Below are positions 5,885-33,203 of a DNA stretch of 64,000 bases, piece after piece. This DNA comes from Candidatus Latescibacterota bacterium. Its GTDB lineage: Bacteria > Latescibacterota > UBA2968 > UBA8231. Location of the stretch: NCBI GenBank assembly GCA_965208105.1, contig OZ242318.1, forward strand, positions 501,731-565,730, written 5' to 3'. The position numbers were made by a program, and so were the translations under genes. Position 1 is the stretch's first letter, and the number at the start of each line of letters is the position of its first letter. A model generated the notes under the pieces. The model made no database searches. It saw nothing but the letters and a program-made list of their open reading frames with translations, and was not told the DNA's origin.

Positions 5885-6303
5885 CTACCCCGAAAGTTTT
5901 TGGTCCAGACCTCACCGAGTCGGAGGACATGATGCCAATCGTTCAATTGGAACTTGTGATTCGAGGTAATTTCGAGCGAATCAGCGGCGACACCCTGCAG
6001 GACCTCGCCGACGAACTCGGTGAATATTTCCAGACGGACAGGGCCGCCACCTGGGTCAAGGTCGGCTACCTTCCATTCGAGCAATATGCGGAAAATCGGA
6101 CCGCGCTTGGAGGCGAGGTAAGGCCCACCCTGGTCTACGTGCTGAAATACCGGCTTCCCCCACGGGACCAACTAGCACAGGAAGCAAAGGACCTGTCGCG
6201 GATCGTGGCGAAACGCCTGCAGCGCCCCGAAGAAAACACTCACATAATTTTCGAGCCGGACGGGATAGGGCGGGTCGCTTTCGGCGGCGAACTGGTCACC
6301 TGA
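5885..6303 (+). repeat. direct repeat copy 1 (tautomerase-like gene plus ~45 nt upstream); partner at 32785..33203
   Basis: My hand alignment with 32785..33203 shows colinear similarity across the whole CDS and ~45 nt upstream. I estimate roughly 85-90% nt identity (not computed). Similarity ends at the stop codon in both copies. Confidence 0.8.
5932..6303 (+). CDS. tautomerase-superfamily-like protein (tandem 4-OT-like halves), copy 1
   Basis: MPIVQLELV N-terminus (Pro directly after Met, hallmark of the 4-oxalocrotonate tautomerase superfamily). C-terminal half ends THIIFEPDGIGRVAFGGELVT, resembling a 4-OT C-terminus. GGAGGA lies 4 nt upstream of ATG 5932. 123 aa. Confidence 0.55.
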   Translation: MPIVQLELVIRGNFERISGDTLQDLADELGEYFQTDRAATWVKVGYLPFEQYAENRTALGGEVRPTLVYVLKYRLPPRDQLAQEAKDLSRIVAKRLQRPEENTHIIFEPDGIGRVAFGGELVT

Positions 6304-6365
6304 TGCTTTTCAGCACTCCGCCGACGCCTTGTCGAGTTTCGATGCAATTGTCCTGAAGGAGGCGG

Positions 6366-6680
6366 TTATACTACGGAAAGCGGTTCGATCCGGGCTAGTT
6401 CGTCTCGATACTGTTGCTTCAAATCCCAAAGATCCCTGGCATGTTGGGCTTGCAGCCAAAATTCAGGAGAGTTCTTGAACACGCGGGCTAGTTTCAACGC
6501 CATGATGGGCGAAACAGCACGCCGCTCGCGCACCAGTTCGTTAACGGTTTGACGAGAAACGCCCAATGCGGCAGCCAAAACAGTCGTCGTCAGACCATAA
6601 TCGGGAAGAAAGTCTTCTCGCAACATCTCCCCAGGATGGGTAGGGGGAATGTTGCGTTTTTGCTTATTTGCAATAGCCAT
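6366..6680 (-). CDS. higA: HigA-family antitoxin (XRE helix-turn-helix)
   Basis: 104 aa. HPGEMLREDFLPDYGLTTTVLAAALGVSRQTVNELVRERRAVSPIMALKLARVF is a typical HigA/VapI HTH. Lies directly downstream of the higB remnant (toxin-first order). Confidence 0.9.
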   Translation of the reverse strand: MAIANKQKRNIPPTHPGEMLREDFLPDYGLTTTVLAAALGVSRQTVNELVRERRAVSPIMALKLARVFKNSPEFWLQAQHARDLWDLKQQYRDELARIEPLSVV

Positions 6681-6690
6681 GGATTATTCC

Positions 6691-6971
6691 TTAATGGTAA
6701 TCCGTGATTTCAACGTCGTAGGCCTCTCCGTCGACGAAGCGAAAACAGATGCGCCATTGGTCATTGATCGATATTGAATGTTGTCCTTTGCGGTCCCCTT
6801 TCAAGGGATGCAGGCGGTTGCTCGGCGGTACCCTCAAATCGTTCAATGTACGAGCGAGATCGATGTATTCCAATCGCCGTATGGCTCTTCGAATCAGATG
6901 GCGGATAATCGTTTGAATTGTCCCGTGGTATAGAGCTGTTGAGTTGCTCTATCGGCGAATGTTTTGATCAC
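6691..6971 (-). pseudogene. higB: HigB-family (RelE/ParE-fold) toxin gene, frameshifted
   Basis: From GTG (rc of 6969-6971), frame A reads VIKTFADRATQQLYTTGQFKRLSAI then stops. Frame B continues LIRRAIRRLEYIDLARTLNDLRVPPSNRLHPLKGDRKGQHSISINDQWRICFRFVDGEAYDVEITDYH. Together they make a full-length HigB-like protein if one base is restored near 6896-6902. The span is 281 nt (3n+2). Confidence 0.75.
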
Positions 6972-7069
6972 AGGTCAATTGTAACGTGCCACGTGATAAT
7001 TGTCAATTCCGGTTAGGGTTCATCCCCGCGTAGGCGGGGCAGCCTCTAACACCGGTGAGTGTATATATA

Positions 7070-7092
7070 TACTGAACTATTGCAAACTTCGG
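7070..7092. repeat. IS left terminal inverted repeat
   Basis: See IS entry. 18/23 match to the reverse complement of 10426-10448. Confidence 0.6.
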
Positions 7093-7607
7093 CTGTGTGT
7101 CCAGCGAAGGCTGGCGTGTTCAGCAGGAGACAGTCCTGCCGGGGTAAGAGTCAGCAGCCCCGTAGCTTGGATAGCAGGGTGGCGGGAAACCAACATCCTG
7201 AAGCCTATCGACAGAGTCTCCCTGGGGAGACTGCGAGTCATTGGGCCGTAACGAAAGTGAACGCAGAGGTGGCCTCGAAAGTGCAAAGCCCCGAAGGCCG
7301 AGCCGACAACCGGACGGCGAAGGCAGCATGGGCAGCCGAAGGCTGAATGAGACGGCTGCTTTACTTCGGCGGGTTGGTAGCGACGGCACGATGGCAAGGA
7401 CATGCCGAGCAACTGGAGAAGCCCTCCTCGCCCCGGCGCGAAATCGCCGGAGCAGGGTAGGTCCTATAACCGGAGACACCGGGAAGGGGACCGAAGGCGA
7501 GAGGGTGGCGGATGGGTGCATAGTAGCGAGGAAGCGGGGTAACGCCCGTGGAGCGAAGGCGCCCTGCTGTTGAACATTCTCCGACAACAACGGGAGGCAC
7601 GGGTGGA

Positions 7608-8909
7608 ATGATAAAAACGCCCATCACGGTGCAGGACCTGAGAAGGAGAATATACCTCAAGGCGAAGGCTGACAAGGCCTGGCGTTTCTGGGGACTGTAC
7701 GTCCATGTATGCAAGAGGGAAACACTCCACGAGGCCTACAAGGCGGCCAAGCGCAATAACGGAGCCCCGGGTATTGATGGCATGACGTTTGCGGCCATCG
7801 AGCAGTCCGGCGTGGAGACGTTTCTGGAAGGCCTACGTGATGAACTGATCTCCGAGACCTATCGGCCCATGAGGAATCGTCGGGTGGAAATTCCCAAGGG
7901 AGAGGGTACAACCCGTACTCTGGGGATACCCAGCATACGAGACCGCGTGGTCCAGGGGGCGCTCAAGCTGATTCTGGAGCCTGTCTTCGAGGCTGATTTC
8001 CAACCGGGGTCGTATGGGTACCGGCCGAAGCGCACGGCCCATCAGGCCATTCAGCGGGTGGCGCAAGCGGTGGTTCAGAACAAGACCACGGTAATAGACG
8101 TGGACCTGGCTTCGTATTTCGACAGGATCCGCCATGACATTTTGTTGAGGAAAGTGGCGGAACGGGTTGATGACCAGCAGGTTCTGAGGCTGCTGAAGTC
8201 CATTCTCAAGACCGGCGGCCGACGCGGCGTTCCTCAAGGGGGTGTCCTTTCCCCGTTGCTCAGCAACCTCTATCTCAACGGGGTAGACCAGATGCTGGAG
8301 CGGGCGAAGCGCGCCACTCGACGAGGGCGGTATACTTATATCGAGTATGTGCGGTTTGCTGATGATGTTGTGATCCTGGTCGACGGCTATCGGCGGTGGA
8401 AGTGGCTCGCCGCGGCGGTCGACCGACGACTTCGGGAAGAATTGGCCAAGCTCGATGTAGCGCTCAATCACGACAAGACGCGTCGAATCGACCTGACCCG
8501 AGGCGAACACTTCGGATTCCTGGGGTTTGACTCTCGTCGAACCAGGACTCGGCGGGGGGTATGGGGCGTGCGCAACGTGCCGACGATGAAGGCACGTACG
8601 GCGCTTCTGCGCAAGCTCAAGGAGCTTTTTCGACGTTTTCGCTCCCAACCGATCGATCGGGTCATCGGCCTGATCAACCCGGTGTTGCGCGGATGGGTCA
8701 ACTACTTCCGTGTGGGGCAGTCGAATCGATGCTTCAGGTATGTGAAAAACTGGGTTGAGAAGAAGATCAGACGCCATCTGATGCGCGCGCGCCAAGGTCA
8801 GAGTTTTGGCTGGAAGAGGTGGAGTAGCCGGTGGTTATACAAAGAGCTCGGGCTATTCTCCGAGTATCGGGTGGCCTACCACCGGCCGAAAGCCCCTCCG
8901 GTACAATAG
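7608..8909 (+). CDS. group II intron reverse transcriptase/maturase (intron-encoded protein)
   Basis: Start MIKTPITVQDLRRRIYLKAKADKAWRFWGLYVHVC is typical of bacterial IEPs. RT motifs RVEIPKGEGTTRTLGIPSIRDRVVQ, GYRPKRTAHQA, GVPQGGVLSPLLSNLYL and RFADDVVILV (FADD in place of YADD). Maturase/X domain INPVLRGWVNYFRVG. Confidence 0.9.
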   Translation: MIKTPITVQDLRRRIYLKAKADKAWRFWGLYVHVCKRETLHEAYKAAKRNNGAPGIDGMTFAAIEQSGVETFLEGLRDELISETYRPMRNRRVEIPKGEGTTRTLGIPSIRDRVVQGALKLILEPVFEADFQPGSYGYRPKRTAHQAIQRVAQAVVQNKTTVIDVDLASYFDRIRHDILLRKVAERVDDQQVLRLLKSILKTGGRRGVPQGGVLSPLLSNLYLNGVDQMLERAKRATRRGRYTYIEYVRFADDVVILVDGYRRWKWLAAAVDRRLREELAKLDVALNHDKTRRIDLTRGEHFGFLGFDSRRTRTRRGVWGVRNVPTMKARTALLRKLKELFRRFRSQPIDRVIGLINPVLRGWVNYFRVGQSNRCFRYVKNWVEKKIRRHLMRARQGQSFGWKRWSSRWLYKELGLFSEYRVAYHRPKAPPVQ

Positions 8910-8941
8910 GTCCCATAGCCCTTGAGAGGAAATCAACAGGA

Positions 8942-8975
8942 AAGCCCGGTGCGGGAAATCCGCATGCCGGGGTTT
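8942..8975 (+). ncRNA. candidate group II intron domain V
   Basis: AAGCCCGGUGCGGGAAAUCCGCAUGCCGGGGUUU has an AGC triad at the 5' base, two helices separated by a 2-nt bulge on the 3' strand, and a GAAA-type loop. One extra G makes the lower helix imperfect. Confidence 0.5.
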
Positions 8976-9081
8976 GACGTGGCGGGAGTTGGAAACGTGA
9001 TCAGGGGAGCCGGACTGAGGCCCATCGCGAAAGCGGTGGAATCGTCACCGGACCCTACCGTTGGCGCGCCAGCTCTCGACC

Positions 9082-10311
9082 CTACCAGGCCAGCTCAAGA
9101 TATGTGACGATGCGCTGCTGATTCCACCCCAAAGTTGTAGCCTGTTCGACGGCCCAATGGATGGTCTTACTGAGCGTTTCCCGCGACACGGCTCGACAGG
9201 CTTGGCCGATGGTCGTCAGCACACCATGTGGCCAGTCACGCGCACGGCCCTGCCCCATTTGGGCTATGAGGAGACTGTGCGCCAGCATCGCCAGATACAG
9301 GTGCCGGGTCTGGCCCTTGGCGCTGCGTAGCTGACAGTCTCCCATGCCCAGATGTTGCTTGCCGTCCCGGTGAAAGGTCTCCGTGCCCGTCCAGCGTTTG
9401 CGGTAGACGTTCAATATACGGCTGATCTCCCAATACACCCGGTTGGTCACCAGGTACTTGACCGGCTTCCTGCCGTTCTTGCGATCCCACAGAATCACCA
9501 GGCGGACGGGGTGATCGAGGTGGGGAAGACGCACGGTTCGGGTGTAATACCACTGTTTGCGATCGCCGATGTCGACCCGTTTGCGCTCCTCGGGGGCGAC
9601 CCCGGCGGCCCACTCGACCGCCTTCATCTCACCGCCCTTGAAACGCACCTTGCGGTTGCTCTTCAAATCCCCCACGTAGCCGCGCGTATGGCCTTGGATA
9701 TGGTTGAGACTCTCGGCACTGGTGAAGTAGCAGTCAAAGGCGAAATCCCCGGGAATCTCTCGCTCCACCACCCCGTCCACCAACTCCTTGAACAGGTCCG
9801 TGTGATTCTTGAAGGGCTCGGCCGACTCGCCTTCGACGCCCTCTTCCCGCTTGCGAAAACGACGAAACTCCAAAGGATAATGTTTCCCCGACGAACACAC
9901 GTAGTTGGCGATCACGTAGTCGTGCGCAATCAGATGGCGCCCCTCGGCATGGTCCCAGAACCAACCCGCGCCCTCGATCATCTCCCCGCTATGGCCGACC
10001 AGGGTGTTGTCGATGGCGATCACCCCCCGCGCTGAATAGCGGGTCGAAGAATGACCCTGCAGCCAGGCCAAACGATGTTCGTTGAGTTGTTCCACGTCCC
10101 ACGGCACCTGGGTGATCCAACGGTTCAGGCAGGATTGATCCGTGGTCTGGGCAAACTCGGCGTTGATCGCCGAAACGTTCTTGCGCTCGGCGACCATCAG
10201 CCCGGTCAGATACTCGGCAAAATGCCAGCGCTCCGGGGTGTTGGCGAACATCCAGCCGAATTCGTCCACGGTTTTCTCGACTATCGTAGGAAAAGAAATA
10301 ATACCCGGCAT
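9082..10311 (-). CDS. IS701-family (IS4-like DDE) transposase
   Basis: 409 aa. The C-terminal region YLVTNRVYWEISRILNVYRKRWTGTETFHRDGKQHLGMGDCQLRSAKGQTRHLYLAMLAHSLL matches the conserved DDE/RW..E.F..K...G pattern of IS701/IS4-type transposases as I recall it. Confidence 0.8.
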   Translation of the reverse strand: MPGIISFPTIVEKTVDEFGWMFANTPERWHFAEYLTGLMVAERKNVSAINAEFAQTTDQSCLNRWITQVPWDVEQLNEHRLAWLQGHSSTRYSARGVIAIDNTLVGHSGEMIEGAGWFWDHAEGRHLIAHDYVIANYVCSSGKHYPLEFRRFRKREEGVEGESAEPFKNHTDLFKELVDGVVEREIPGDFAFDCYFTSAESLNHIQGHTRGYVGDLKSNRKVRFKGGEMKAVEWAAGVAPEERKRVDIGDRKQWYYTRTVRLPHLDHPVRLVILWDRKNGRKPVKYLVTNRVYWEISRILNVYRKRWTGTETFHRDGKQHLGMGDCQLRSAKGQTRHLYLAMLAHSLLIAQMGQGRARDWPHGVLTTIGQACRAVSRETLSKTIHWAVEQATTLGWNQQRIVTYLELAW

Positions 10312-10425
10312 GAACCCCTCTCACAGCGTCAGGGGACGTGCAAGGCGGGGGAGACCTTGCCTCGCCAATATACTCAGGTGGGCGACATATCTGCTACCGA
10401 AAACCTGGACTCATCAGCGGGAAAT

Positions 10426-10448
10426 CCTCATTTTGCAAAAGTCCAGTA
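10426..10448. repeat. IS right terminal inverted repeat
   Basis: See IS entry. Confidence 0.6.
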
Positions 10449-10676
10449 GTTCATGCAAATTCACCGCTGCTTGCGGTGGAAAGATTACCTCTACTTCTTT
10501 GATACCTCTTCATCTTTCCATATATTGGATATTAATAGTTAGTTTTGTGGCCCAAAGCAACGCTGGTCGAAACGGCAAAGGGCAACCGACCAGGGCAGAG
10601 CACCATAGGGTCATTTCCAAGCTGATGTGGCCCTGTCTCTCCTAGTTCTATATCCCAGGAAAGGAGTGAGTTTAAA

Positions 10677-11822
10677 TTGGAGCGGTCGCACTACGCCGAA
10701 GAAAAACCCGGGAGAAGACGACCCGCGCGTTTGGCTTCCCCGCAAGCAAAACAGGGAAAAAACAGGGAGGAAGGGACGCTCTATCGCGACCTCTTTGAAG
10801 AATCCCACGAGGCCCTCATCATCACCGAGCGAGACGGGAAAATCGTCGATGCCAATAACGCTGCCAGCGCTCTGTTTGGCTACGCACGCGCCGAGCTGGT
10901 GGGCATGAATATCCGCTTCGTCTACTTGAACGCGGAAGACCGAGAGCGCTTTCAGGAAAAGGTCGAGAAGCAGGGATTTGTGCGCGATTTTGAACTGGCT
11001 TTTCACACCAGCAATGGACGTCGACTCGACTGCTTGGTGACGACCACCGTGCGGCGAGCTACAGACGGTACCGTAGCAGGCTATCAGGGCATCATCTTCG
11101 ACATTTCCGAGCGCAAGCGCATGGAAAAAAAACTGCACAAGTATCAGCGAAAGCTCCAGTCGTTAACGGTAGAACTTTCCAGAAACGCAGAGCATGAACG
11201 GCGGTGTCTTGCCGATAACCTCCACGATGGCCTCGGGCAGGACTTGGTGCTGGCGCAGTTAAAGCTCGAAACCCTGCGGCATGCCAACGATAGTGATCAC
11301 AAGGCTCTGATCGCCGATCTGCAGGCTGTGCTCGACCGGATGAGTCTCTACCTCCGCTCCGTGACCTTTGATCTCACCCCCCCCATGCTCCACGACCTAG
11401 GGCTCATACCGGCCCTGGAGTGGCTCAGTGAACATATCGAGCAGGACTACGGATTGAAGGTGGAACTAAAAACCAATGGCGACTGCGAAGTCCCTGATCA
11501 AAATACACGTGACCTGACGTTCAGATGCATTCGCGAGTTGTTACACAATGCCGCACGGCACGCCAATACGGATCTGGCCACAGTGTCGTTGTGTCCTGGC
11601 TCGACGCATTTGCAGGTGCTGGTAGAGGACACCGGACAGGGCTTTGACCTTGTGCAGTTGGACCCTGAGAAGGATAATTCTCATTTCGGCCTGTTCAGCA
11701 TTCGCGAGCACCTGACCTATATCGGTGGCCATTTCGCCATCGAGTCGAGCTTGGGACAAGGCACGAGTTGTCTGCTGACAATTCCGTTTTCCCTCTCCGG
11801 CCAAGAGGATAATTCCCAATGA
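10677..11822 (+). CDS. PAS-domain sensor histidine kinase (HisKA_3 / NarX-type, cytoplasmic)
   Basis: PAS region: YRDLFEESHEALIITERDGKIVDANNAASALFGY...GIIFDISERKRME. H-box: ERRCLADNLHDGLGQDL. HATPase_c: LHNAARHANT...VEDTGQGF...GGHFAIESSLGQGTSCLLTIPF. TTG start 9 nt after AGGAGTG. The stop overlaps the RR start (ATGA). Confidence 0.85.
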   Translation: MERSHYAEEKPGRRRPARLASPQAKQGKNREEGTLYRDLFEESHEALIITERDGKIVDANNAASALFGYARAELVGMNIRFVYLNAEDRERFQEKVEKQGFVRDFELAFHTSNGRRLDCLVTTTVRRATDGTVAGYQGIIFDISERKRMEKKLHKYQRKLQSLTVELSRNAEHERRCLADNLHDGLGQDLVLAQLKLETLRHANDSDHKALIADLQAVLDRMSLYLRSVTFDLTPPMLHDLGLIPALEWLSEHIEQDYGLKVELKTNGDCEVPDQNTRDLTFRCIRELLHNAARHANTDLATVSLCPGSTHLQVLVEDTGQGFDLVQLDPEKDNSHFGLFSIREHLTYIGGHFAIESSLGQGTSCLLTIPFSLSGQEDNSQ

Positions 11823-12466
11823 CTTCGCGTGTTCTTCTGGTGGACGATCACCAGATAGTGCGTCAGGGGCTGCGCTTGCTGCTCGAAAGAGAAAGCGATA
11901 TCGAGATGGTCACCGAGGCCGGAGACGGCCAGACGGCCATCAACTTGGTCCTGGCCTCTCCACCTGACCTTGTGGTCATGGATATCGGCATGCCCGGCTT
12001 GAACGGCGTCGAGGCCACGCGCCAGATTCGAGCCAAGAACCCCCAGGTGCAAGTAATAGCCCTGTCGATACACGCCGACAAGCGCTTTGTGGCCGCCATG
12101 CTGCAGGCGGGGGCCTCGGGCTTTTTGCTAAAAACGGAGGCCGCCCGCGATCTGGTGGAAGCGATCCGGACGGTAATGGCCGGCCACAAGTACCTGAGCC
12201 CGCGATTGATTGATCCCCTCGTTGACGATTACGTGGAGCACCTCGTCGACCAAGGCGACCCATCCCTCCTGACCGCACGCGAGCGCGAGGTGTTGCAGCT
12301 CATCGCCGAAGGAAAGACAACGGCGCAAATAGCCAATCAACTCATGGTAAGCGAGAAAACCGCCGCCACTCATCGCCAGCATATCATGGAAAAGCTCAAC
12401 CTGCATAATGTGGCCGAGTTGACCAAATACGCGATCAAAGAAGGGCTCACTGGACTGGATGAGTGA
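11819..12466 (+). CDS. LuxR/NarL-family response regulator (REC + HTH)
   Basis: REC: VLLVDDHQIVRQGLRLLLE...DLVVMDIGMPGLNG. LuxR HTH: LTAREREVLQLIAEGKTTAQIANQLMVSEKTAATHRQHIMEKLN. Confidence 0.9.
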   Translation: MTSRVLLVDDHQIVRQGLRLLLERESDIEMVTEAGDGQTAINLVLASPPDLVVMDIGMPGLNGVEATRQIRAKNPQVQVIALSIHADKRFVAAMLQAGASGFLLKTEAARDLVEAIRTVMAGHKYLSPRLIDPLVDDYVEHLVDQGDPSLLTAREREVLQLIAEGKTTAQIANQLMVSEKTAATHRQHIMEKLNLHNVAELTKYAIKEGLTGLDE

Positions 12467-12677
12467 TCCTTTGGGCTGGGTGGCCGCTTCGCTTCGTCCA
12501 ACCAGGTGTCCTTGAACTATTACCTCCTCGACCTCGCCGGCAAGATACGGTAAATCCGTCGGCGCAAAAGACGGTCCTTGCTCTTGGAAGGATGGGCAGG
12601 TGTGATCGCGCAATTGAAAACATGCCCCATTGGCTTCCTGCTCTTAGCTATTGACGCTCTTTGAGGAGGCCTGAGAA

Positions 12678-14021
12678 ATGTTCAAAAATGCACACTGGCT
12701 ATGGAGGATCGGAGCACTTTGTATCTCCAGCGTCCAGGCTGAAGAGGCTGCCAAGCTCGACTTGGACTACTGCCTTGAAGCGGCCATGGAGCACAACCGC
12801 GAGTTGATTCAGGCGCGCGGAAAAATCCGCCAAGAAGAGAGCAATGGAGTCATGGTCCACTCCCGCTTCATGCCCAGTCTGGACCTGAGATCCAACTACA
12901 ATGCCAGCCGCACGGAAGCGCAGGGAAAGACCGAAGATCATGTCGCCAGCCATCTGCGTTTTTCCCAACGCCTCTTCGAATTTGGCCCCGAATTAGCCCA
13001 TGACGTGCAGCAGCGCGAGAACCTGCGCAAAGCTATCTATGCCTACCAAGACCAGGTCTACCGGGTGCTTTCCCAGGTGTGGCAAACCTTTCATTTAATC
13101 CTGCTGCAGGAGCGTCAGATCGCCACTCGCCACCGGTCTCGCCAGGACTTTCAAGAGGATTACGAGCGCAAGCAAGCCCGTTTCGAGCGCCGCCTCGCCG
13201 GCGAAGAAGAGGTGCTCAGCGCCTATCTCAACGTCCTCAACGAGGAGTTGGCCATCAACAATCTGGAGCGCGAGCAGTTCAACGACGAGATGACCCTGCT
13301 GCGCCTCATCGGCCAGCCCATCGGCCTCCACCTGCGGCTTTCGAGCGCGCATGTGAATTTCACCCTGGAGCCGGAGCAGGCCGTGAAGCTAGCTCTCGAA
13401 AACAGCGTGCCAATCGCTTTGGCCGCTTGGCGCCTTGAGGAGCAGCAGCGCATTCTGCGCGAGATCGACTGGGAGTACAGCCCGGATCTGTCCTTTGGCA
13501 CCGGCGTGGAGGACGGTCGGCGCAATGCCAAGGTGAGCCTCGACAGAGACGGCGGGACCTGGGGAATGGATCTGTCTTCGGAACTCCAACTCCGCGAGGA
13601 GCAGCCGGAGGACCCGGCATTCAGCGACGAGACCCGCTGGTTCGCACAAGTCGAGGCGCGCATCCCCATCTTTGAAGGAGGCTTGCGTCTGGGTCTGGAG
13701 CGCCGTGAGAAAGCGCGCTTGCACCAGATCGAAGTCGAGTTGGGCGACCTACGCGCCAGCGCCGAGCTGCAGGTGCGCCAGGCCTACCAGTCCATGCTCG
13801 AGGCCGAGGGCCGCCAGCGCATCCAACAGGAACGAGTGCGCATTGCCCGCCGCCGCCTGGAGATCAACCAGATTCTCATGGACAAAGGCCAAGCCGACGA
13901 GAGCAAACTGGAGCAGCTCCGCAGCCAGTTCTTCCAGGCTCAGGACGTGCTTTTTCAGAACCAGGTAACTTACATCATCCAGCAGGCCACCTTGCGCCGC
14001 TTCATGGGATATTTTAAGTGA
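12678..14021 (+). CDS. TolC-like outer-membrane efflux protein (OEP family)
   Basis: 447 aa. The N-terminal LDLDYCLEAAMEHNRELIQARGKIRQEE and a second-half repeat with LRLGLERREKARLHQIEVELGDLRASAELQVRQAYQSMLEAE are typical of the two OEP repeats. The stop overlaps the next gene start (14018-14021). Confidence 0.8.
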   Translation: MFKNAHWLWRIGALCISSVQAEEAAKLDLDYCLEAAMEHNRELIQARGKIRQEESNGVMVHSRFMPSLDLRSNYNASRTEAQGKTEDHVASHLRFSQRLFEFGPELAHDVQQRENLRKAIYAYQDQVYRVLSQVWQTFHLILLQERQIATRHRSRQDFQEDYERKQARFERRLAGEEEVLSAYLNVLNEELAINNLEREQFNDEMTLLRLIGQPIGLHLRLSSAHVNFTLEPEQAVKLALENSVPIALAAWRLEEQQRILREIDWEYSPDLSFGTGVEDGRRNAKVSLDRDGGTWGMDLSSELQLREEQPEDPAFSDETRWFAQVEARIPIFEGGLRLGLERREKARLHQIEVELGDLRASAELQVRQAYQSMLEAEGRQRIQQERVRIARRRLEINQILMDKGQADESKLEQLRSQFFQAQDVLFQNQVTYIIQQATLRRFMGYFK

Positions 14022-15532: not shown

Positions 15533-15534
15533 AT

Positions 15535-17067: not shown

Positions 17068-17072
17068 AGAGA

Positions 17073-17147
17073 AAACCTGCGAAACTCCAAGCGGCCGAAT
17101 TGACCAAGTACGCGATCAAAGAAGGACCCGCTGGACCAGAGAAATAA
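17073..17147 (+). pseudogene. remnant of the 3' end of a LuxR-type response-regulator gene
   Basis: AACCTGCGAAACTCCAAGCGGCCGAATTGACCAAGTACGCGATCAAAGAAGGACCCGCTGGACCAGAGAAATAA aligns with the last ~70 nt of the RR gene at 12395-12466 (...VAELTKYAIKEGLTGLDE versus AELTKYAIKEGPAGPEK). No upstream coding part is present. Confidence 0.7.
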
Positions 17148-22730: not shown

Positions 22731-22744
22731 GGCCCCTAATACCC

Positions 22745-24640: not shown

Positions 24641-24954
24641 ACGGGCGTGAGGACGGCACCATGAGAGAAGCTATCGAGCAGCGATTGTACGAACTGATAG
24701 GGACGTTTGGAGACCAACCGATCAACTGCTCTGTTGAGAGCGAAGTGCGAAGGATGCTCCATATCATCTTGAGCGAGTCCATACAAGCGATGGAATTCGT
24801 CATCGCCATTGAGAACGAATTCGAGATCGAGTTCGACGACGAAGACATCTCCATCCAATTCTTCCTCGACCCGGATCATATCATCCAATCCGTGCTGAGA
24901 GGTCTGGCGCGGAAGGAGGCGGATGGCCTAACATCATCAAGTGCTGTCACCTGA
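24637..24954 (+). CDS. acyl-carrier-protein-like small protein
   Basis: LHIILSESIQAMEFVIAIENEFEIEFDDEDI aligns with the ACP helix II region (DSL replaced by ESI, Ser retained). GTG 24637 overlaps the upstream stop (GTGA). Alternative ATG at 24661. Confidence 0.6.
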   Translation: MNGREDGTMREAIEQRLYELIGTFGDQPINCSVESEVRRMLHIILSESIQAMEFVIAIENEFEIEFDDEDISIQFFLDPDHIIQSVLRGLARKEADGLTSSSAVT

Positions 24955-24965
24955 GGAGGTCTGCC

Positions 24966-26366: not shown

Positions 26367-26382
26367 TAGAGGAGTCATCCCC

Positions 26383-27786
26383 ATGTTCAAGACTATTCTG
26401 TTCAAGGAAATCAAGGGCCATTTAGGCACGGTGACATTCGCCGTCTGGATGGGCGTCTCGTGCCTGGTGGTATGGATGGCTCTGGAGAGCGGCTATTCGA
26501 GATACGAGCACAAGCATCAGCAATACCTCGATCAGGAACGAGAGGCGAAAAAAAGCCTCAGTAAAGAATACTTTGCGTTCTGGCCGGAAGAGGAAATATT
26601 CCGGGTGCTGCGCCAGCCGTCGGTGTTGAGCACCATCGTCTATGGGCTTGAAGGTGAGCTGCCGGTTTATCTGAGCGTCAACCCCAACGGCGTCCGGTCC
26701 GGTTCGAAGGGGATGGGTGGAGCTATGTCGCGCCTGTTGGGAGAGCTGGATTTTCTCCTGGTCATCGAGATGGTGTTCGGGCTGATGGCCGTCGTGCTGG
26801 CGGCCACTCTGGTGTCGTCGGAGGGAGAAAACGGGACGCTCAAGCTGATATTGGCCAACCCGGTCTCCCGCAGCACGGTCTTGTTGGGGAAGGGGCTGGG
26901 CGCCTTCGCCATCATCGCCTTTGTCTTTGTGTTTTCCACTTTTATCGGGCTTTTGTTCCTGTCGGTGAAGGGGTTTCCCCTCCTCGAACGGGAGGTGCTC
27001 GCGTCACTGCTCGTGATTGTGGCGGGAAGTCTGGTTTATTTGCTGTGCGTTTTCCTGGTGGGGATGATCTGCTCCATCCTGTTTTTGAACACCCGGGTGG
27101 CCTTGGTGCTGAGCGTCTTGCTGTGGGCGGTGCTGTCTTTTCTGCTGCCCAAAAGCGCCGGGACTGCGGCGGAGTTGATGCGCCCGGCAGAAGACGGTTG
27201 GACCGTTTACTTGCGTCAGAAATCCGCCCGTGAAGCCCATCTCAAGGCCCACCACGAGGAAGTGAACAAGCATTACCCCCATCTGGGTCCAGCCCCGGAC
27301 TCGAGGGATCTGGACTACCCAGGGATTACGGAGACTGCCGTAGCGGCTTGGGGGAAGTACAGCGACCGGATCGCCAAAGAAGTGACCACCATCGCCGAGG
27401 ATCACAATCGCAACAAGCAAGCCCAGGAAGCCCTGGGGAAGGTGCTGTCCCGGCTATCCCCCGCAAGCAGTCTCCGCCTGCTGTTGGCCAATGTGGCCGG
27501 CACGGGCGACCAGGTGAAGCGCAACTTCCTGCAAGCGGCCTGGAACTATCAGAATACGGTTGACGACAAAGTCTTCTCAAAAAGAATCCATATCACTATC
27601 AGGAAGAATCAGGGTTGGCCCTGGGACATGGGTGCAGAGCGACCGCCGCCCCTGCCCCCGCTCCTGCCGCCGTCTCTCGAGAGTGTCTTGGTGGAGTCGG
27701 CGTTAGAAATCGCTTTATTGTTCGTCTATTCCGTCTTCCTGTTCATGCTGGCCTATATGCTTTTCATTCGTCGATCCATCGCGTAG
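26383..27786 (+). CDS. ABC-2-family permease-like membrane protein, paralog 2
   Basis: ATG 26383 after GAGGAG. The first ~150 nt are nearly identical to paralog 1. SSEGENGTLKLILANPVSRSTVLLGK. Confidence 0.8.
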   Translation: MFKTILFKEIKGHLGTVTFAVWMGVSCLVVWMALESGYSRYEHKHQQYLDQEREAKKSLSKEYFAFWPEEEIFRVLRQPSVLSTIVYGLEGELPVYLSVNPNGVRSGSKGMGGAMSRLLGELDFLLVIEMVFGLMAVVLAATLVSSEGENGTLKLILANPVSRSTVLLGKGLGAFAIIAFVFVFSTFIGLLFLSVKGFPLLEREVLASLLVIVAGSLVYLLCVFLVGMICSILFLNTRVALVLSVLLWAVLSFLLPKSAGTAAELMRPAEDGWTVYLRQKSAREAHLKAHHEEVNKHYPHLGPAPDSRDLDYPGITETAVAAWGKYSDRIAKEVTTIAEDHNRNKQAQEALGKVLSRLSPASSLRLLLANVAGTGDQVKRNFLQAAWNYQNTVDDKVFSKRIHITIRKNQGWPWDMGAERPPPLPPLLPPSLESVLVESALEIALLFVYSVFLFMLAYMLFIRRSIA

Positions 27787-27801
27787 TAATGGAGTCTTAT
27801 C

Positions 27802-29229
27802 ATGTTCAAGACCATTATGTTCACGGAAATCAGGAGTCGCTTGGGCACGGTAACTTTCTCCCTGTGGCTGGGCGTCTCGTGCTTGGTGGTATGGATGGCT
27901 CTCGAGAGCGGCTACTCGAGATACGAGCACAAGCATCAGCAGTACCTCGATCTGAAACGGGCGGCCCAAGATGGCCTCAGCAAAGCATACATGCCGGTCG
28001 TAGCGGAAGAGGACATATTCCGGGTTCTGCGTGAGCTCTCCGTGTTGAGTGCCATCGTCTACGGGCTGGAAGGCGAGATGCCGGTCTATATGAGCGTCAA
28101 TCCCAACGGCGTACAGCCCGGGGCGGGGATAGCGGATAAATCCTTGTTGGACCTGTTGGGAGAGTTGGATTTTCTCCTGGTCATCGAGCTGATTCTCGGG
28201 TTGATGGCCGTGGTGCAGGCAGCCACTCTGGTGTCGTCGGAAGAGGGAAACGGGACGCTCAAACTGATGTTGGCCAACCCGGTCTCTCGCAGCACCGTCC
28301 TGTTGGGGAAGGGGCTGGGCGCCTTCGCCGTCATCGCCTTCACCCTTTTGTTTTCCACCCTTTTCGGACTTTTTTTGCTCTCGGTCCGGGGATTTCCGCT
28401 CTTCGAGGCAGCGGTGCTCGCGCCGATACTCTTGATCTTGACGGGGAGCCTGGTCTATCTGCTCGTCATCTTTCTGATCGGGCTGACCTGCTCTATTCTG
28501 TTTCTGAATTCCCAGGTAGCTTTGATCCTGAGTGTCTCGCTCTGGGCTGCGCTGTCTTTTCTCGTGCCCCAAAGCGCCTGGACTACGGCGGAGTTGATCC
28601 GCCCGGCAGAGAACGAGCGGACGGTTTATGTGCGGCAGAAATACGCCCGCGAAGCCCATCTCAATGCCTACCACGAGGAATTGAACAAGCGTTACCCCCA
28701 CCTGCAACCTGACGCAGAGGGCAATGCGGACTGGTCGGGGGTCAACCAGACCGAGTTGACGAAGGACGCGGTGGCGGTTTGGGCGAAATACAGCGACCGG
28801 ATCGCCAAAGAAGTGACCACCATCGCCGAGAACTACCACCGGAACAAGCAAGCGCAGGAAGCCCTCGGTAGGGTGCTGTCCCGGGTCTCCCCCACCGGCA
28901 GTTTCCGCCTACTCTTGGCCAACCTGGCCGGTACGGGCAACCAGGTGAGGTGGAAATTCTTGCAAGCGGCCTGGGACTACCAGAATATGGCAAACGATAA
29001 AGTCTTCTCAAAAGATCCCATGATCACTATCGGACCCTCGAGTTGGTGGCCCAGTATTATGCGGGGTGCAGATAACCCTCCTCCCCCACCTCCCCCACCA
29101 CCGGTCATGGTTCCGTCCCTCGGCAGCGTCTTGACAGAGTCGGCCTTGGACATGGCCATGCTGTTCATTTACGCCGTCGTGCTCTTCATGTTGGCGTATT
29201 CGCTGTTCATGCGTCGGTCCATTGTATAG
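27802..29229 (+). CDS. ABC-2-family permease-like membrane protein, paralog 3
   Basis: MFKTIMFTEIRSRLGTVTFSLWLGV. SSEEGNGTLKLMLANPVSRSTVLLGK. PPPPPPPPP tract before the last TM helix. Confidence 0.8.
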   Translation: MFKTIMFTEIRSRLGTVTFSLWLGVSCLVVWMALESGYSRYEHKHQQYLDLKRAAQDGLSKAYMPVVAEEDIFRVLRELSVLSAIVYGLEGEMPVYMSVNPNGVQPGAGIADKSLLDLLGELDFLLVIELILGLMAVVQAATLVSSEEGNGTLKLMLANPVSRSTVLLGKGLGAFAVIAFTLLFSTLFGLFLLSVRGFPLFEAAVLAPILLILTGSLVYLLVIFLIGLTCSILFLNSQVALILSVSLWAALSFLVPQSAWTTAELIRPAENERTVYVRQKYAREAHLNAYHEELNKRYPHLQPDAEGNADWSGVNQTELTKDAVAVWAKYSDRIAKEVTTIAENYHRNKQAQEALGRVLSRVSPTGSFRLLLANLAGTGNQVRWKFLQAAWDYQNMANDKVFSKDPMITIGPSSWWPSIMRGADNPPPPPPPPPVMVPSLGSVLTESALDMAMLFIYAVVLFMLAYSLFMRRSIV

Positions 29230-29266
29230 TCCGCCGCTCCCATTGCATGAGGATGAGTTGAGAGTT

Positions 29267-31015
29267 ATGAAACGCGTTCCTGACTCGGAACCTGGGATGA
29301 TCAGAGCTACACTGAAGAGAATCGGATTATACCGCGCAATTATGGCCAACGGACTGAATATATTGCTTCTGTGTATTATCGCCGCGGCAGTGGTAACGTT
29401 GACCATAGCCAAGCCCATCGTGTTTTCCAGGATAATTGACAAGGGAATCCTCAGTGAGGACTGGAGCGTGGTCCGCTCGCACTGCGTCTACTTCCTCATT
29501 ATTGCATTGGGCTTGAGTCTTTTCGGGTTAGCTCACTCTTTAGTCGCGTCGGTAATACACAACAAAATATCCTTGATAATCAAACAGGTTCTCCTGGAAC
29601 GGATCTTTCTCCTGGACGCCGGATTCTTCCACACGAACAAGACCGGAGACGTCATTACCAAGCTGGACAACGACGTATCGAGCATCCAGACCTACATCAT
29701 GTCGGTCCTGAACGCCTCCATGAACAATTTTATCAGCTTTCTAGGGGCGATGATCTATATCGGCTACGTGCAATGGAGGATGTTGATCGTCGGGTTCCTG
29801 GTGACCCCGTTTGTGGGTCTGGCCATTTACGCGTTCCGCAACGTGTTATACTCCAAGGACAAGAAGACCCGGGAGCGGAAGTCCGACGTAAATGACGCGA
29901 TAATAAACGCCGTCGACCATCAGCTTTACCTGAGGAAGGTCGGATTGGACTCGAGATCGCTGTCGAAGTGCAAATGGACCTTGGACCAGTACCGGGTCGC
30001 ATCCATCTTTTACGACCTATGGCGCGGCGGCAGCGGGTCGCTAAACAACCTCCTCCTTGCCGTCGGCTATATTGTTACCATCGGCTACGGTTCGTGGCTG
30101 GTCTTCAAAGGCATGCTCAGCGTCGGCAATCTTTTCGCATTTCTAACCCTGCGCACCATGTTCCTTGCCCCGCTGACGGTCTTCAAGGAAATCTACAGTG
30201 GGTACTTTTCGACTAAATCCGCATTCAAGCGCCTGGACGATTTCTTCTGCCATCGGATCGAGAAGGGTCTGGAACGCATGGACAACTCGAAACCCGAATC
30301 GTTTGGAGAGATCTGTTTGAGCAACGTATCGTTTGCCTATCCAGGGCAACACTGTCTGTTGAACCACATTGACGTTGAATTCGGCAGGGGCTGGAATATC
30401 CTGGCGGGTAGAAACGGTGCGGGGAAATCGTCATTGATCGACCTGCTCATGAAGATTTCGTCTCCAAGGGAGGGGCGCATCTTGGTCGACGGCGTAGATA
30501 TTGGCTCGCTCAACAATCAGTCATGGAGGTCCAACATCAGTGCCATGCCTCAAACCACGTACTTGTTCAAAGGGTCGTTGCGGGAGAACATTCGCCTGTA
30601 TGACGAGGGCATAACCGACGGTCGAATTCAGGCCGTGCTGAACCGCCTGAGCTTCGATTTCGATCCCGAAAAGCTACCAGCAGGGCTCGATACGAACATT
30701 ATGGAGGGAGGGACCAATTTTTCTGGGGGCCAGCGCCAAAAAATCGCGATCGCCAGGACCGCCCTCAAAGACACCCCTATCTACATCTTCGATGAACCCC
30801 TGTCCAGTCTGGATATGCGTTCGCGCGGCCTGGCCTTGGAGTACTTAAAAAAGGCGCTCAAAGGCAAGATCGTCCTAATCGTTTCACACGATGACATGGG
30901 CGAATATACGGATCGGGAGTACAGAATGAAAGACGGGGCCATCGTGACCACCGCCGCAAACGGGTTGGATCGTGTTCCAGAGGAGGGTTCCAATACTTTG
31001 CATATATCAGTCTGA
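29267..31015 (+). CDS. ABC exporter, fused transmembrane + ATP-binding domains (type I exporter, no C39 peptidase domain)
   Basis: ATG 29267. N-terminal 6-TM-type domain. Walker A GRNGAGKSS, signature FSGGQRQKIAIART, Walker B IYIFDEPLSSLD. Confidence 0.85.
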   Translation: MKRVPDSEPGMIRATLKRIGLYRAIMANGLNILLLCIIAAAVVTLTIAKPIVFSRIIDKGILSEDWSVVRSHCVYFLIIALGLSLFGLAHSLVASVIHNKISLIIKQVLLERIFLLDAGFFHTNKTGDVITKLDNDVSSIQTYIMSVLNASMNNFISFLGAMIYIGYVQWRMLIVGFLVTPFVGLAIYAFRNVLYSKDKKTRERKSDVNDAIINAVDHQLYLRKVGLDSRSLSKCKWTLDQYRVASIFYDLWRGGSGSLNNLLLAVGYIVTIGYGSWLVFKGMLSVGNLFAFLTLRTMFLAPLTVFKEIYSGYFSTKSAFKRLDDFFCHRIEKGLERMDNSKPESFGEICLSNVSFAYPGQHCLLNHIDVEFGRGWNILAGRNGAGKSSLIDLLMKISSPREGRILVDGVDIGSLNNQSWRSNISAMPQTTYLFKGSLRENIRLYDEGITDGRIQAVLNRLSFDFDPEKLPAGLDTNIMEGGTNFSGGQRQKIAIARTALKDTPIYIFDEPLSSLDMRSRGLALEYLKKALKGKIVLIVSHDDMGEYTDREYRMKDGAIVTTAANGLDRVPEEGSNTLHISV

Positions 31016-31023
31016 TATTCAGA

Positions 31024-32082
31024 ATGAGCTACCAGATGTCGACTAAAGAGTTATACTTACCGCTCAATCCCAATCCTCCGATTAGAGTCTATCTGCATCA
31101 TGCCTACCCTCTGTCAATTTTATCAAGTACCGAAGAGTATTTGCCCTGGTTCCGAAGCAACTTTGTTCAACTGTATAGCGGGGGTCCCGATCATATCGAT
31201 TTCCTCGTACCCATGCTTACACACGCAGACCATCCTCAGATCTACTATTCTCCTCTTCTGAACGTGGTTCGGCTCAATAGAAAAATCGTCGATTTGATAA
31301 ATGCCGATTCTGAAATCTGGAGATTCATTGTCGACTGTATAACAGAGGGCTTCTACGTCGATATCGAGGTTGATGAATATCACGTTCCTTTTACTCGCGC
31401 ATTCCATAATTTTCATACTGGACATTCTCTTCTGATTCATGGCTACAATACTGCTCAGGAAAAATTCAGTGCCATCGGTTACGATCGAAACGGCAAATAC
31501 GGCATCCAGCTTGTCGATTTTGCCAGCACACTCAAAGCTTACGGTAGCCGGGAAAGTAAAAATCACATGGCAATAGTGTCTCATGCTTTAAGACAGAAAA
31601 CGGGCCGCGATAGCAACATCCAGTGCGAATTCACGCTCGAGTTGGTGGTTGACATGCTCAAGGACTACATCCACTCAATCAACACGCTTGACCGGTTGAA
31701 GTTGGTTTTGAGATCGAACTATAGATCGAATTCCCTGCGTTTTGGAATTGAGGCCGTCAGAAAATTGCGATTTGAACCTAGTGCGGCGAATGCGCCTTTG
31801 GATCTGCGTCCTTCTCACTGTCTCTGGGAGCATAAGAAATGTATGGCCGAGAGGGTTCAGTACCTGGTAGAAAACGGATATTTGGACAAGGTTGGAAATT
31901 TGGTATTTGAGTTCGGAAAAATTGCTAAAATGGCGGAATCACTCAGGCTGCTGGCAATCAAGTACAACTTGCAGAAACAACGAAAAATACTCCATAAAAT
32001 GGACAACCTGAGAAACAAAATAGTTGAGGGTGAGAAATTCCTCATAAAAAATTTACTGGACCGACTACCGTCATGCCCATGA
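31024..32082 (+). CDS. hypothetical protein (orphan, last gene of the lower-GC operon)
   Basis: 352-aa ORF, AT-rich codon usage like its neighbours, 8 nt after the exporter stop. No motif I can assign with confidence. Confidence 0.6.
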   Translation: MSYQMSTKELYLPLNPNPPIRVYLHHAYPLSILSSTEEYLPWFRSNFVQLYSGGPDHIDFLVPMLTHADHPQIYYSPLLNVVRLNRKIVDLINADSEIWRFIVDCITEGFYVDIEVDEYHVPFTRAFHNFHTGHSLLIHGYNTAQEKFSAIGYDRNGKYGIQLVDFASTLKAYGSRESKNHMAIVSHALRQKTGRDSNIQCEFTLELVVDMLKDYIHSINTLDRLKLVLRSNYRSNSLRFGIEAVRKLRFEPSAANAPLDLRPSHCLWEHKKCMAERVQYLVENGYLDKVGNLVFEFGKIAKMAESLRLLAIKYNLQKQRKILHKMDNLRNKIVEGEKFLIKNLLDRLPSCP

Positions 32083-32179
32083 ATAGCTTTACCAATTTGC
32101 AAAAAATTCATAAGACAGTCCGTTCGCGACCCGTAACCTGATGCCGGCGGCGCTTCCGATCCTTTAACCGGAAAGGCCG

Positions 32180-32257
32180 CTCCGCCGCAACATCAGTTTT
32201 CCGAAGGCAAAATCAGGTGTTCGCCCGATTGAGAAGCACCGTTGCCGTCGCTATGTT
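32180..32257 (+). promoter_or_regulatory. operator/promoter module copy C (at the distal end of the lower-GC operon)
   Basis: AACATCAG (32189) and AAAATCAG (32209). GGCAAA-N8-TTCGCC. TTGAGA (32229-32234), 17-nt spacer, TATGTT (32252-32257). No intact gene follows. Confidence 0.5.
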
Positions 32258-32784
32258 AGATAGCGAAAGGTCACTCAGGTCCGCGCAGCATCCCGCCTCA
32301 GCGGGGCAGCCTGATTGAAAAGGAGACGGTTCGTGCCCTCCAGTGCTTTCATCCTGTCTCGTTTCCAGCCGAACCACGCCCCAGAGGTCACGGCGTTTCT
32401 CAACCTGTCGCAACAGCATCAGTGGATGAGACGAGCCCTCCCCGAACGCCGGTGGAGTACGCCGGTGAGGTGGACCTGGTCGTGCACGGCCAGGTCCACC
32501 TGAACTTTGGCGAGAACATACCCGGTATAGGCCTGGTGCTCTGAATGGGCTTCTCCCTGGAGGGAGCACCTTGCTGATCACCGACGGCATCGGCAAACAA
32601 GCTCTTGAATCAGCCGTGTGGGCAGGTACATCCGCACGTTCGGGCGCCTCGGACGAGGGCGCGGCGAGTATTTCTCTACCGGAAGTTTGAAGGAGACGAT
32701 ACCGTGCAAGCGAGGTGTCATTGGCCCTAGATTTAGATTGCAGATAATCCGGTGTCACCTGATTTCGGAAGGGCTGATGAGGCG

Positions 32785-33203
32785 CGGGAGAATGCTTTTT
32801 CTGGGCAAACCTTGCCGAGTTGGAGGACGCGATGCCGATCGTTCAATTGGAACTTGTGATTAGGGGGAATTTCGAGCGCATCAGCGGCGACACCCTGCAG
32901 GAGCTTGCCGATGAGCTCGGCGAGTATTTTCAGACGGACAGGGGCGCTACCTGGGTCAAGGTCGACTACCTTCCATTCGAGCAATATGCGGAAAATCGCG
33001 CCGAGCTCGGAGGCGAGGTAAAGCCCACCCTGGTCTACGTGCTTAAATACCGGCTGCCGCCACGGGATCGACTGGCGCAGGAAGCGAAGGATCTGGCGCG
33101 GATCGTTGCAAGGCGCCTGCAACGCCCCGAAGAAAACACCCATATAATTTTCGAACCTGACGGGGTCGGAAGGGTGGCTTTCGGCGGCGAGCTGGTCACC
33201 TGA
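32785..33203 (+). repeat. direct repeat copy 2 (partner of 5885..6303)
   Basis: See copy 1. Confidence 0.8.
32832..33203 (+). CDS. tautomerase-superfamily-like protein, copy 2
   Basis: MPIVQLELVIRGNFERISGDTLQELADELGEYFQTDRGATWVKVDYLPFEQYAENRAELGGEVKPTLVYVLKYRLPPRDRLAQEAKDLARIVARRLQRPEENTHIIFEPDGVGRVAFGGELVT. 123 aa, about 90% identical to copy 1 by eye. GGAGGA 4 nt upstream. Confidence 0.55.
   Translation: MPIVQLELVIRGNFERISGDTLQELADELGEYFQTDRGATWVKVDYLPFEQYAENRAELGGEVKPTLVYVLKYRLPPRDRLAQEAKDLARIVARRLQRPEENTHIIFEPDGVGRVAFGGELVT

Follow-up and report, generated by a model that had tools for sequence, protein, structure and literature searches.

A strain-specific 27-kb integrase-free island between diverged copies of a tautomerase-fold gene in a sugar-transporter locus of a Candidatus Latescibacterota bacterium

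Introduction

A stretch of 64,000 nt from a Candidatus Latescibacterota bacterium (GenBank assembly GCA_965208105.1, contig OZ242318.1, positions 501,731–565,730; hereafter the window, in whose coordinates positions are given) raises the question of how a large block of accessory genes came to lie between two diverged copies of one gene within the locus for a sugar ATP-binding cassette (ABC) transporter. The gene, here called T, encodes a 123-aa protein with a predicted tautomerase fold, and its left and right copies are designated T_L and T_R. A sequence-only reading of the window had described the block as an acquired accessory segment. It had judged homologous recombination with an incoming copy of T, or duplication of T followed by insertion, to be more likely than site-specific integration. 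The locus was compared with those of related strains represented in metagenome assemblies. In the reading that we favour, and hold to be probable, the segment is one allele of a hypervariable integration hotspot around T that is exchanged by homologous recombination.

Results

The segment is absent from the closest relatives

The two genes were found where the sequence-only reading had placed them, in the same orientation on the + strand, with T_L at 5932..6303 and T_R at 32832..33203, and both are intact. Their start codons are 26,900 nt apart and 26,528 nt lie between the copies. Alignment of T_L with T_R (BLAST E about 1e-139) gave 87.9% nucleotide identity, within the range of 85–90% that had been estimated by eye, and 91.9% amino acid identity. 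The codon differences comprise 32 that are synonymous and 10 that are non-synonymous, and the longest identical runs reach 33 nt. In-register identity begins at about 5905 and 32805, respectively, approximately 27 nt 5′ of the ATG, and takes in the ribosome-binding region; the earlier figure of about 45 nt of upstream similarity was too high. Past the stop codon, identity drops to background within about 10 nt, in agreement with the earlier observation that the similarity ends there.

Five metagenome contigs with flanks 85–98% identical in nucleotide sequence to those of the window served as relatives. Each carries, in addition to a fucosidase gene, two ABC ATPase genes, one T, a 58-aa open reading frame (ORF), two permease genes and a gene for a solute-binding protein (SBP), and none carries the island. 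The left and right flanks are 98.4% and 97.4% identical to the window in L147, and 97.0% and 97.6% identical in L149, while flank identity is about 95% for L012, about 90% for L016 and about 85% for L011. The ATPase genes, the single T and the permease genes are contiguous in the first four, which have an empty site, and in L011 an additional gene of the AAA_14/DUF4143 type separates the ATPase gene from T. An arrangement with two copies of T was looked for and was found in none of the five. As the relatives are contiguous with a single T, the segment is an insertion or an allelic replacement and not an ancient two-copy arrangement, and the earlier proposal of an acquired accessory segment is borne out by these empty sites.

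The limits of the segment were defined by the same comparisons. Homology of L147, L149 and L012 to the window ends at 5672, in the start codon (5670–5672) of the adjacent ATPase gene, and resumes at 32815, which is 17 nt 5′ of the start of T_R. For L016, the break is at 5696 and homology resumes at 32809. The window thus has 27,142 nt (5673..32814) in the place of an intergenic region of 226 nt in L147. This 27.1-kb segment is strain-specific and absent from the closest relatives.

Several strains occur together in the source metagenome, and an assembly could in principle have joined two strain haplotypes whose copies of T never lay on one chromosome. Short-read contigs do break inside the repeat, and the k-mer depth of neighbouring Logan contigs differs up to two-fold (7.6 to 15.4). 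However, both junctions recur at 99.9–100% identity in independent assemblies and samples. The left junction was found in contig L005 from a Tara sample (99.9% over 1394 nt), and L010, of that sample too, contains the right one. Both are also covered by Logan contigs of run X1, whose only breaks fall in the 27–33-nt stretch that is identical between the copies, and pieces of the window type were also present in runs X4 and X5. The sequence internal to the island is continuous in the window, which is part of a contig of 4.85 Mb. Only the window assembly places T_L and T_R together on one molecule. Among the Logan contigs of four runs that span the junctions, no contig with a hybrid T, an empty site or a circular junction was seen, though contigs of this kind cannot show rare forms. 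An artefact of assembly appears extremely unlikely.

The two copies and their upstream DNA differ in origin

T_R is 94.4–95.4% identical in nucleotide sequence to the single T of L012, L147 and L149, and is contiguous and colinear with the right flank. The corresponding values for T_L are 90.1% with L012, 90.3% with L011 and 88.4% with L147. A phylogeny of the copies, which had been proposed as a check on their origin, was obtained as a neighbour-joining tree, in which T_R formed a clade with its orthologs from L012 and L013 (100% bootstrap) and T_L fell outside. The deeper nodes of this tree had low bootstrap values, and the placement of T_L is limited to its exclusion from the T_R clade. No switch point was detected across the 45 diagnostic sites that separate the copies, with T_R being L012-like and T_L distinct throughout. 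These comparisons show T_R to be the resident ortholog and assign T_L, by its sequence, to a lineage that is about 10–12% diverged.

The DNA upstream of each copy was examined in the same way, using BLAST, as global alignments gave identities at the level of shuffled sequence and were uninformative. The intergenic region 5′ of T_L (259 nt, 5673..5931) is allele-specific and of a foreign type. Bases 5673–5904 could not be aligned to L147, L149 or L012 despite flanks that are 95–98% identical, and 5673–5830 is about 80% identical to the intergenic region of L011 (bases 7850–8279 of that contig). The remaining bases, 5905–5931, are the short upstream stretch common to all copies of T. Upstream of T_R, the region 32720..32831 is 100% shared with a group of contigs from other samples (the L006 type, described below), and its last 54 nt (32778–32831) are also found in L011 and are absent from L012 and L016. 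On these alignments, T_L and the DNA 5′ of it come from an allele lineage that is distinct from, and older than, that of the core genome around them, and T_L is probably the imported copy.

A recent local duplication of T is excluded by the position of T_L outside the clade of the relatives and by the foreign-type upstream region. An old tandem duplication in situ, followed by insertion of the cargo, is a different proposition. In that history T_R would have been homogenised by recombination through the right flank, while T_L, insulated by the cargo, diverged. It is consistent with the finding that neither copy is disrupted and that most of their differences are synonymous, with the recombination seen in the flanks, which would homogenise T_R, and with the mosaic composition of the island, which resembles the product of stepwise accretion. 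The duplication must, however, predate the split from L012, L147 and L149, since T_L lies outside their clade, and each of the five sampled relatives would subsequently have to have lost or replaced both T_L and the island. A local duplication also leaves the L011-like intergenic DNA 5′ of T_L unexplained. We regard this sequence of events as improbable.

The arrangement also invites comparison with a Campbell-type event, in which a circular molecule with its own T would have entered by a single homologous crossover in the resident T, duplicating the gene around the cargo. Direct copies in the same orientation do bracket the cargo exactly, the homology between them ends at the stop codon, and exact runs such as those noted above are present. 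Such a crossover is expected to leave reciprocal hybrid copies, and these were not seen at any of the diagnostic sites, although an exchange at the extreme 5′ end (first ~30 nt) would leave the copies unmixed. The DNA to the left of T_L should be native, but it is the part at 5673–5904 that cannot be aligned to relatives that are 95–98% identical. In addition, the 112 nt 5′ of T_R are shared with the L006 type and L011, which are island-free or hold other cargo, and this puts the right joint upstream of the homology between the copies. A Campbell-type integration is therefore quite improbable.

Core genes beside the island have a different genealogy

With L012 as the outgroup, making four genomes in all, shared derived sites were counted for each pair that can be formed from the window, L147 and L149. 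Away from the island (1–5000 and 37300–43000), 102 sites were shared by the window and L147, 15 by the window and L149, and 7 by L147 and L149, identifying the window and L147 as sisters. Near the island (5000–5672 and 32815–37300), the counts for the same pairs were 23, 30 and 16 (chi-square p=7.8e-11). Substitutions private to the window were 2.3-fold enriched near the island (p=1.4e-5), the divergence between the window and L147 climbed to about 5% in 5251–5672, and the genealogy of the right flank was disturbed out to about 37300. The core genes beside the island have a genealogy unlike that of the rest of the region.

This switch in the flanks suggests that whole alleles are exchanged by homologous recombination via the flanking core genes and not via the duplicated gene. 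The copies of T were probably not the substrate of the crossover, because there is no switch at the diagnostic sites, homology is already lost from 259 nt 5′ of T_L, and the recombination signal lies in the core genes on either side. The earlier preference for homologous recombination over site-specific integration thus stands, as no integrase, tRNA gene or att-like repeat was found, but the particular route through an incoming copy of T agrees poorly with the unswitched diagnostic sites and the signal in the flanks. The alternative of a duplication, offered in the same reading, is disfavoured by the position of T_L outside the clade.

Variable DNA is found on both sides of T in other strains

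Further contigs carrying T were examined for the DNA on either side of the gene. Contigs L006–L009 come from other sponge and coral samples and match the window at 100% over the interval that starts at 32720 and takes in T_R. To the left of 32720 they contain degraded remnants of the AAA_14 gene present in L011, and an RND efflux pump gene ends before these. The insertion in L017 is a DUF3800 gene placed immediately behind the T stop codon. In the more distant L018 and L019, DUF4143 gene fragments are found ahead of T, and the operon for the two permeases and the SBP is separated from T by about 8 kb that contain toxin-antitoxin genes and further accessory genes. As variable cargo is found both upstream and downstream of T in other strains, the locus is a two-sided hotspot. 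A unit of about 400 nt, made up of T and 27 nt upstream of it, is the conserved anchor with variable DNA on both sides.

AAA_14/DUF4143 sequences were seen upstream of T in three settings, as a gene in L011 (8466–9869), as remnants in L006 (1283–1517) and as unrelated-looking DUF4143 fragments in L018 (9167–9948), and the association with T may be recurrent. A similarity between T_L and L017 just past the stop codon extends over only about 7 nt and was dismissed as insignificant.

In several lineages, breakpoints recur about 27 nt 5′ of T and at the stop codon, which could reflect a preferred target for a site-specific or transposing element. The segment might then be an integrative element that has lost its integrase, or the IS701-family element or group II intron might have mobilised it, as a transposase gene of that family and such an intron are both present in the island. 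The searches for the machinery of such an element were negative. No tRNA or tmRNA gene was detected within the 64-kb window. The sizeable ORFs of 5673–32831 include no tyrosine or serine recombinase or other integrase domain, and the gaps between them are too short for one. Relaxase, excisionase and transfer genes were not found among the scanned ORFs of the island, and there is no short att-like flanking repeat, the sole flanking direct repeat being the approximately 400-nt, 88% identical T pair. The absence of an integrase, tRNA gene and att-like repeat had been noted from the sequence alone, and the domain scans and the tRNA and repeat searches confirmed it. The single insertion sequence (IS) is internal to the island, with no second copy bracketing the cargo, and this argues against a composite transposon. 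The group II intron is a retroelement and does not carry 25 kb of cargo. Insertion by either kind of element is very unlikely.

In a further reading, T and its ~27 nt of upstream sequence may form an anchor that stays in place and is prone to insertion at either boundary. The two copies would then have been left behind by a staggered recombination of two old alleles, of which one had cargo downstream of the anchor and the other had cargo upstream. This is a tentative suggestion, and we think it rather unlikely. If it were true, diverged duplicates of genes that flank hotspots would be a general and datable marker of the additive acquisition of islands from other lineages. Such duplicates might also act as portable homology arms that move the 27-kb cluster among strains of uncultured symbionts.

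T belongs to a rare family with a tautomerase fold

Neither T_L nor T_R has a match in Pfam or NCBIfam. Among 31 homologs, six matched PF01361 (Tautomerase; best E 4.8e-6), and a profile of the family gave a string of weak matches to 4-OT and MIF when compared with the PDB. An AlphaFold2 model of T, calculated with the 31 homologs as input, had a pLDDT of 91.8 and the order of elements E-H-E/E-H-E, corresponding to two fused beta-alpha-beta units. The best Foldseek matches of the model were MIF, cis-CaaD/Cg10062 and an engineered fused 4-OT (TM 0.70–0.74, E about 1e-6). A proline directly after Met1 (P2) is nearly invariant across the 31 homologs and is present in both copies. T thus has the two-unit beta-alpha-beta fold, as modelled, and the N-terminal proline in common with members of the tautomerase superfamily. 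It differs in that its sequence identity to the superfamily structures is just 12–17% and that the family to which it belongs is without a curated model. The label 'tautomerase-like' is supported by the model at the level of the fold and the position of the catalytic residue.

The T protein is rare, with 42 clusters in 5.8 billion sequences, all of them metagenomic, and the runs that contain the sequence are sponge, coral and marine metagenomes. In GTDB representative genomes, it matched distant loci only (at most 69% amino acid identity), the nearest being in metagenome-assembled genomes labelled Spirochaetia. A PabB-like core protein retrieved from that set only hits of about 52% amino acid identity, in metagenome-assembled genomes of Gemmatimonadota and Latescibacterota, and the set contains no close relative. 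Of approximately 60 further loci of the family, not one has the two-copy arrangement. The 42 loci recovered from JGI metagenomes in a scan with the family alignment are distant, and they include no case of two copies and no member of the clade of the window.

The flanking transporter locus

The core genes on the left flank are an alpha-L-fucosidase gene (1675..2988, + strand; PF01120, E 5e-89), which is syntenic in L011, L012, L016, L017, L147 and L149, and two genes for MalK-like ATPases on the − strand. The ATPase gene next to the island (4608..5672) has ABC_tran, OB_MalK and TOBE_2 domains. The second (3568..4611; ABC_tran, TOBE_2) was assigned its coordinates by colinearity with the 347-aa genes of the relatives. 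On the right flank, also on the − strand, are the two permease genes (33369..34250 and 34234..35133; BPD_transp_1) and the SBP gene (35143..36444; SBP_bac_1). The permease operon ends with the 58-aa hydrophobic ORF (33196..33372, − strand), which overlaps the stop codon of T_R by 8 nt. This ORF has no family match and is conserved in all relatives, and the order of the ORF, the permease genes and the SBP gene is the same in all of them.

These Pfam assignments agree with the flanks described in the sequence-only reading. With an SBP_bac_1 protein, two permeases of the MalF/MalG type and an OB/TOBE MalK-type ATPase, the predicted products fit a CUT1-type sugar ABC importer, and the adjoining fucosidase suggests a fucose-containing glycan as its substrate. 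The parts of one transporter had been said to be separated by the segment. It is correct that ATPase and permease genes are contiguous around a single T in the relatives, but no operon is broken, as in every relative T already lies between the ATPase and permease genes, which are in opposite orientation. The island widens an existing gap.

Content of the island

The cargo described from the sequence alone, namely higBA, an IS, a group II intron, a two-component system, export genes and a peptide operon of lower GC content, was recovered in the domain searches. The GC content is 0.44–0.60 in the blocks of the island and 0.64 in both flanks.

At the left end, on the − strand, a gene for a HigA-like HTH antitoxin (6366..6680; HTH_3, E 5e-9) adjoins one for a HigB-like toxin (6691..6873; PF05015, E 2.8e-17) that matches profile positions 18–91 of 91 and is apparently 5′-truncated. 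An in-frame stop codon is located 13 codons upstream of the first start codon, and about 17 N-terminal profile positions are missing (region 6691–6945, − strand). HigB may be inactive, and the pair, in which HigA is intact, is perhaps a decaying toxin-antitoxin system.

The group II intron (7096..9085, + strand) was recognised by matches to RF02003 (7121–7256, 117.6 bits) and, weakly, RF00029 (8940–9085, 27.8 bits), and its 5′ end is approximate. It contains an ORF for a reverse transcriptase/maturase (7548..8909, + strand; RVT_1, GIIM). A GC hairpin (7024–7039) is found just before the intron, and the 3′ end of the intron abuts the stop codon of the IS701-family transposase gene. In run X1 the intron is multi-copy, with a contig depth of 100–200 compared to about 8 in neighbouring DNA, and has many alternative left flanks. 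The IS701-family gene (9082..10311, − strand) encodes a DDE transposase (NF033540, 187 bits with a cut-off of 150; DDE_5) and is present in a single copy.

The remaining cargo is on the + strand, and most of it was assigned using Pfam. The two-component system consists of a PAS histidine kinase (10677..11822) and a LuxR-type response regulator (11819..12466). It is followed by an export and accessory block (within 12678..18628) with genes for an outer-membrane efflux protein (OEP), two NPCBM_assoc proteins, an ABC ATPase (17290..18012) and a receiver-domain protein (17981..18628). The low-GC operon (18860..32082) is of a type resembling those for ribosomally synthesised peptides with post-translational modifications (RiPPs). 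It includes genes for an S41 peptidase, a candidate precursor (20901..21062), a radical SAM/SPASM maturase (21249..22730), a fusion of S8 peptidase and DUF1611, three tandem ABC-2 permeases (24966..29229), an ABC exporter (29222..31015) and a BtrH_N-like protein (31024..32082). The permease genes are a tandem triplication, detected in the repeat analysis, with a period of about 1417 nt and 74–84% nucleotide identity between copies, and a related cluster in L021 has only one. The right end of the island (32083..32719) contains no recognisable gene, as its ORFs have no Pfam match.

An element of about 80 nt is repeated at 17162–17241, 18687–18734 and 32176–32253 and contains two 'AAAATCAG' motifs. 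Two of the copies precede operons of the island, and the third is at the right end, followed only by a 62-aa ORF (32315..32503) for which no family match was found. The element is not present in L021 or L022, and may be a promoter region to which a regulator binds.

The peptide cluster

The radical SAM protein scored 378 bits against the NCBIfam model for FlmE/OhkG, which has a cut-off of 500. The 53-aa, Cys-rich product of 20901..21062 (MKELIKPNLTEEECENNEVAAYCDLYSCAPVSCNLWSCQPVSGDDESGDILF), which ends in ...GDDESGDILF, scored 28.1 bits against the model for FlmA, which has a cut-off of 30. The FlmA/OhkA 'DD(I/V)LF' precursors belong to orphan RiPP clusters with mature products that are uncharacterised (PMC12703449). 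The cluster in the window resembles these (PMC12703449; NF052472, NF052473) in having an FlmE/OhkG-like radical SAM/SPASM protein and a small Cys-rich peptide ending ...GDILF. It differs in that both model scores are below the cut-off and that no peptide arginase is present among the scanned ORFs.

The cargo probably yields, to judge from its predicted genes, a regulated and exported Cys-rich peptide of the FlmA type that is modified by the radical SAM enzyme and is accompanied by immunity-like ABC-2 transporters. Given its two-component system, its pair of peptidases, the ABC exporter and outer-membrane channel, and the three ABC-2 permeases with an ATPase, the island most likely serves to make a modified peptide under regulation, to export it and to protect the producer from it.

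A permuted form of the cluster was found in L021 (1–16857) and L022, which are from the same samples as L006–L009. There, genes for a sigma-70-like protein, the S41 peptidase, a 49-aa ORF, the radical SAM protein, the S8/DUF1611 fusion, an ABC-2 permease, the ABC exporter and the BtrH_N protein are followed by those for the OEP and NPCBM_assoc proteins. The peptide block is 80–84% and the export block 68% identical in nucleotide sequence to the window, and the two blocks are in the opposite order. A homolog of the radical SAM protein (P0046, 81%) is located on a contig of 822 kb, and the protein has no match in GTDB representative genomes.

Discussion

The empty sites, the separate origins of T_L and T_R, and the altered genealogy of the flanking genes are best brought together if the segment is regarded as an exchangeable allele of the hotspot. 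Alleles with and without the island would be swapped among strains by homologous recombination of the RecA type, with crossovers in the flanking core genes, roughly within 5000–5672 on the left and 32815–37300 on the right. How the two-copy allele arose is more weakly indicated. DNA of a diverged relative may have been joined upstream of the resident T and not have replaced it. The locus of that relative would have read ATPase gene, intergenic region, T, higBA and onward, with the cargo on the downstream side of the T of that strain. The join would have been anchored by homology on the ATPase side, and the other side would be either an illegitimate join or a join inside cargo that was already there. 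Such an integration would be additive and facilitated by homology. The donor T would have travelled as a passenger, and neither the resident T nor the permease operon would have been disrupted.

Several observations weigh against this account. The donor lineage was not found, as the T of every contig outside the strain of the window itself differs from T_L by at least 7 aa. Likewise, the protein search recovered no exact partner linking contigs of the L006 type to the cluster of L021 and L022. Changes private to L147 are also mildly enriched beside the island (p=0.009), and the direction of recombination in the flanks could be either way, with the window having gained the island allele or the relatives having received the empty one. 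The right joint, at 32719/32720 relative to the L006 type or 32814/32815 relative to L147, has no informative microhomology, and the step of an illegitimate join is therefore conjecture. The population is visibly mosaic, and a succession of several events may have been overlaid at the locus. The current distribution is accounted for as well by an ordinary double crossover of a pre-assembled allele as by additive acquisition.

Homologous recombination in the core genes on either side is known to underlie turnover at hotspots without genes of mobile elements (Oliveira, Touchon, Cury & Rocha 2017, PMC5635113). The present locus is like these hotspots in that presence and content are polymorphic between the same core genes, there is no integrase or tRNA gene, the GC content is lower, and the flanks carry a signal of recombination. 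It is unlike them in that one flanking gene occurs twice, as a resident and a 12%-diverged copy, and that cargo is found on both sides of T, and the comparison here involves a handful of metagenome contigs. Homology-facilitated illegitimate recombination in which the resident gene is kept has been described for the arrays of orphan immunity genes of the type VI secretion system of Vibrio cholerae (PMC5361080) and in a study of conjugation in Escherichia coli (PMC3240628). The proposed integration would share with these an anchor on one side, retention of the resident gene and a diverged duplicate left as a scar. The left side of the segment is consistent with such an anchor, since identity to the relatives extends to the ATPase start codon and divergence rises over the final 400 nt. 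In the present case the illegitimate joint is hypothetical, and 27 kb is far above the fragment sizes used in the experiments.

Classical genomic islands and integrative and conjugative elements, which insert at the 3′ end of tRNA or protein-coding genes, also place cargo between direct repeats derived from a host gene and have toxin-antitoxin and IS genes inside. In those elements the att repeats are short and identical, whereas here a whole gene and about 27 nt are repeated at 88% identity, and integrase, excisionase and transfer genes are lacking. The segment is an integrase-free island at a recombination hotspot, and its turnover is of a well-documented kind.

The locus leaves the current understanding of island turnover unchanged. 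It provides a clean example, from an uncultured symbiont of sponges and corals, of how a 27-kb biosynthetic and export island can enter and leave a core locus without an integrase, and empty sites at 98% identity fix its limits with single-base precision. A small but helpful hint at how the allele was first put together comes from the diverged duplicate of the flanking gene. For natural products, the cargo is a strain-variable, putative member of the orphan RiPP family of the FlmA/'DD(I/V)LF' type.

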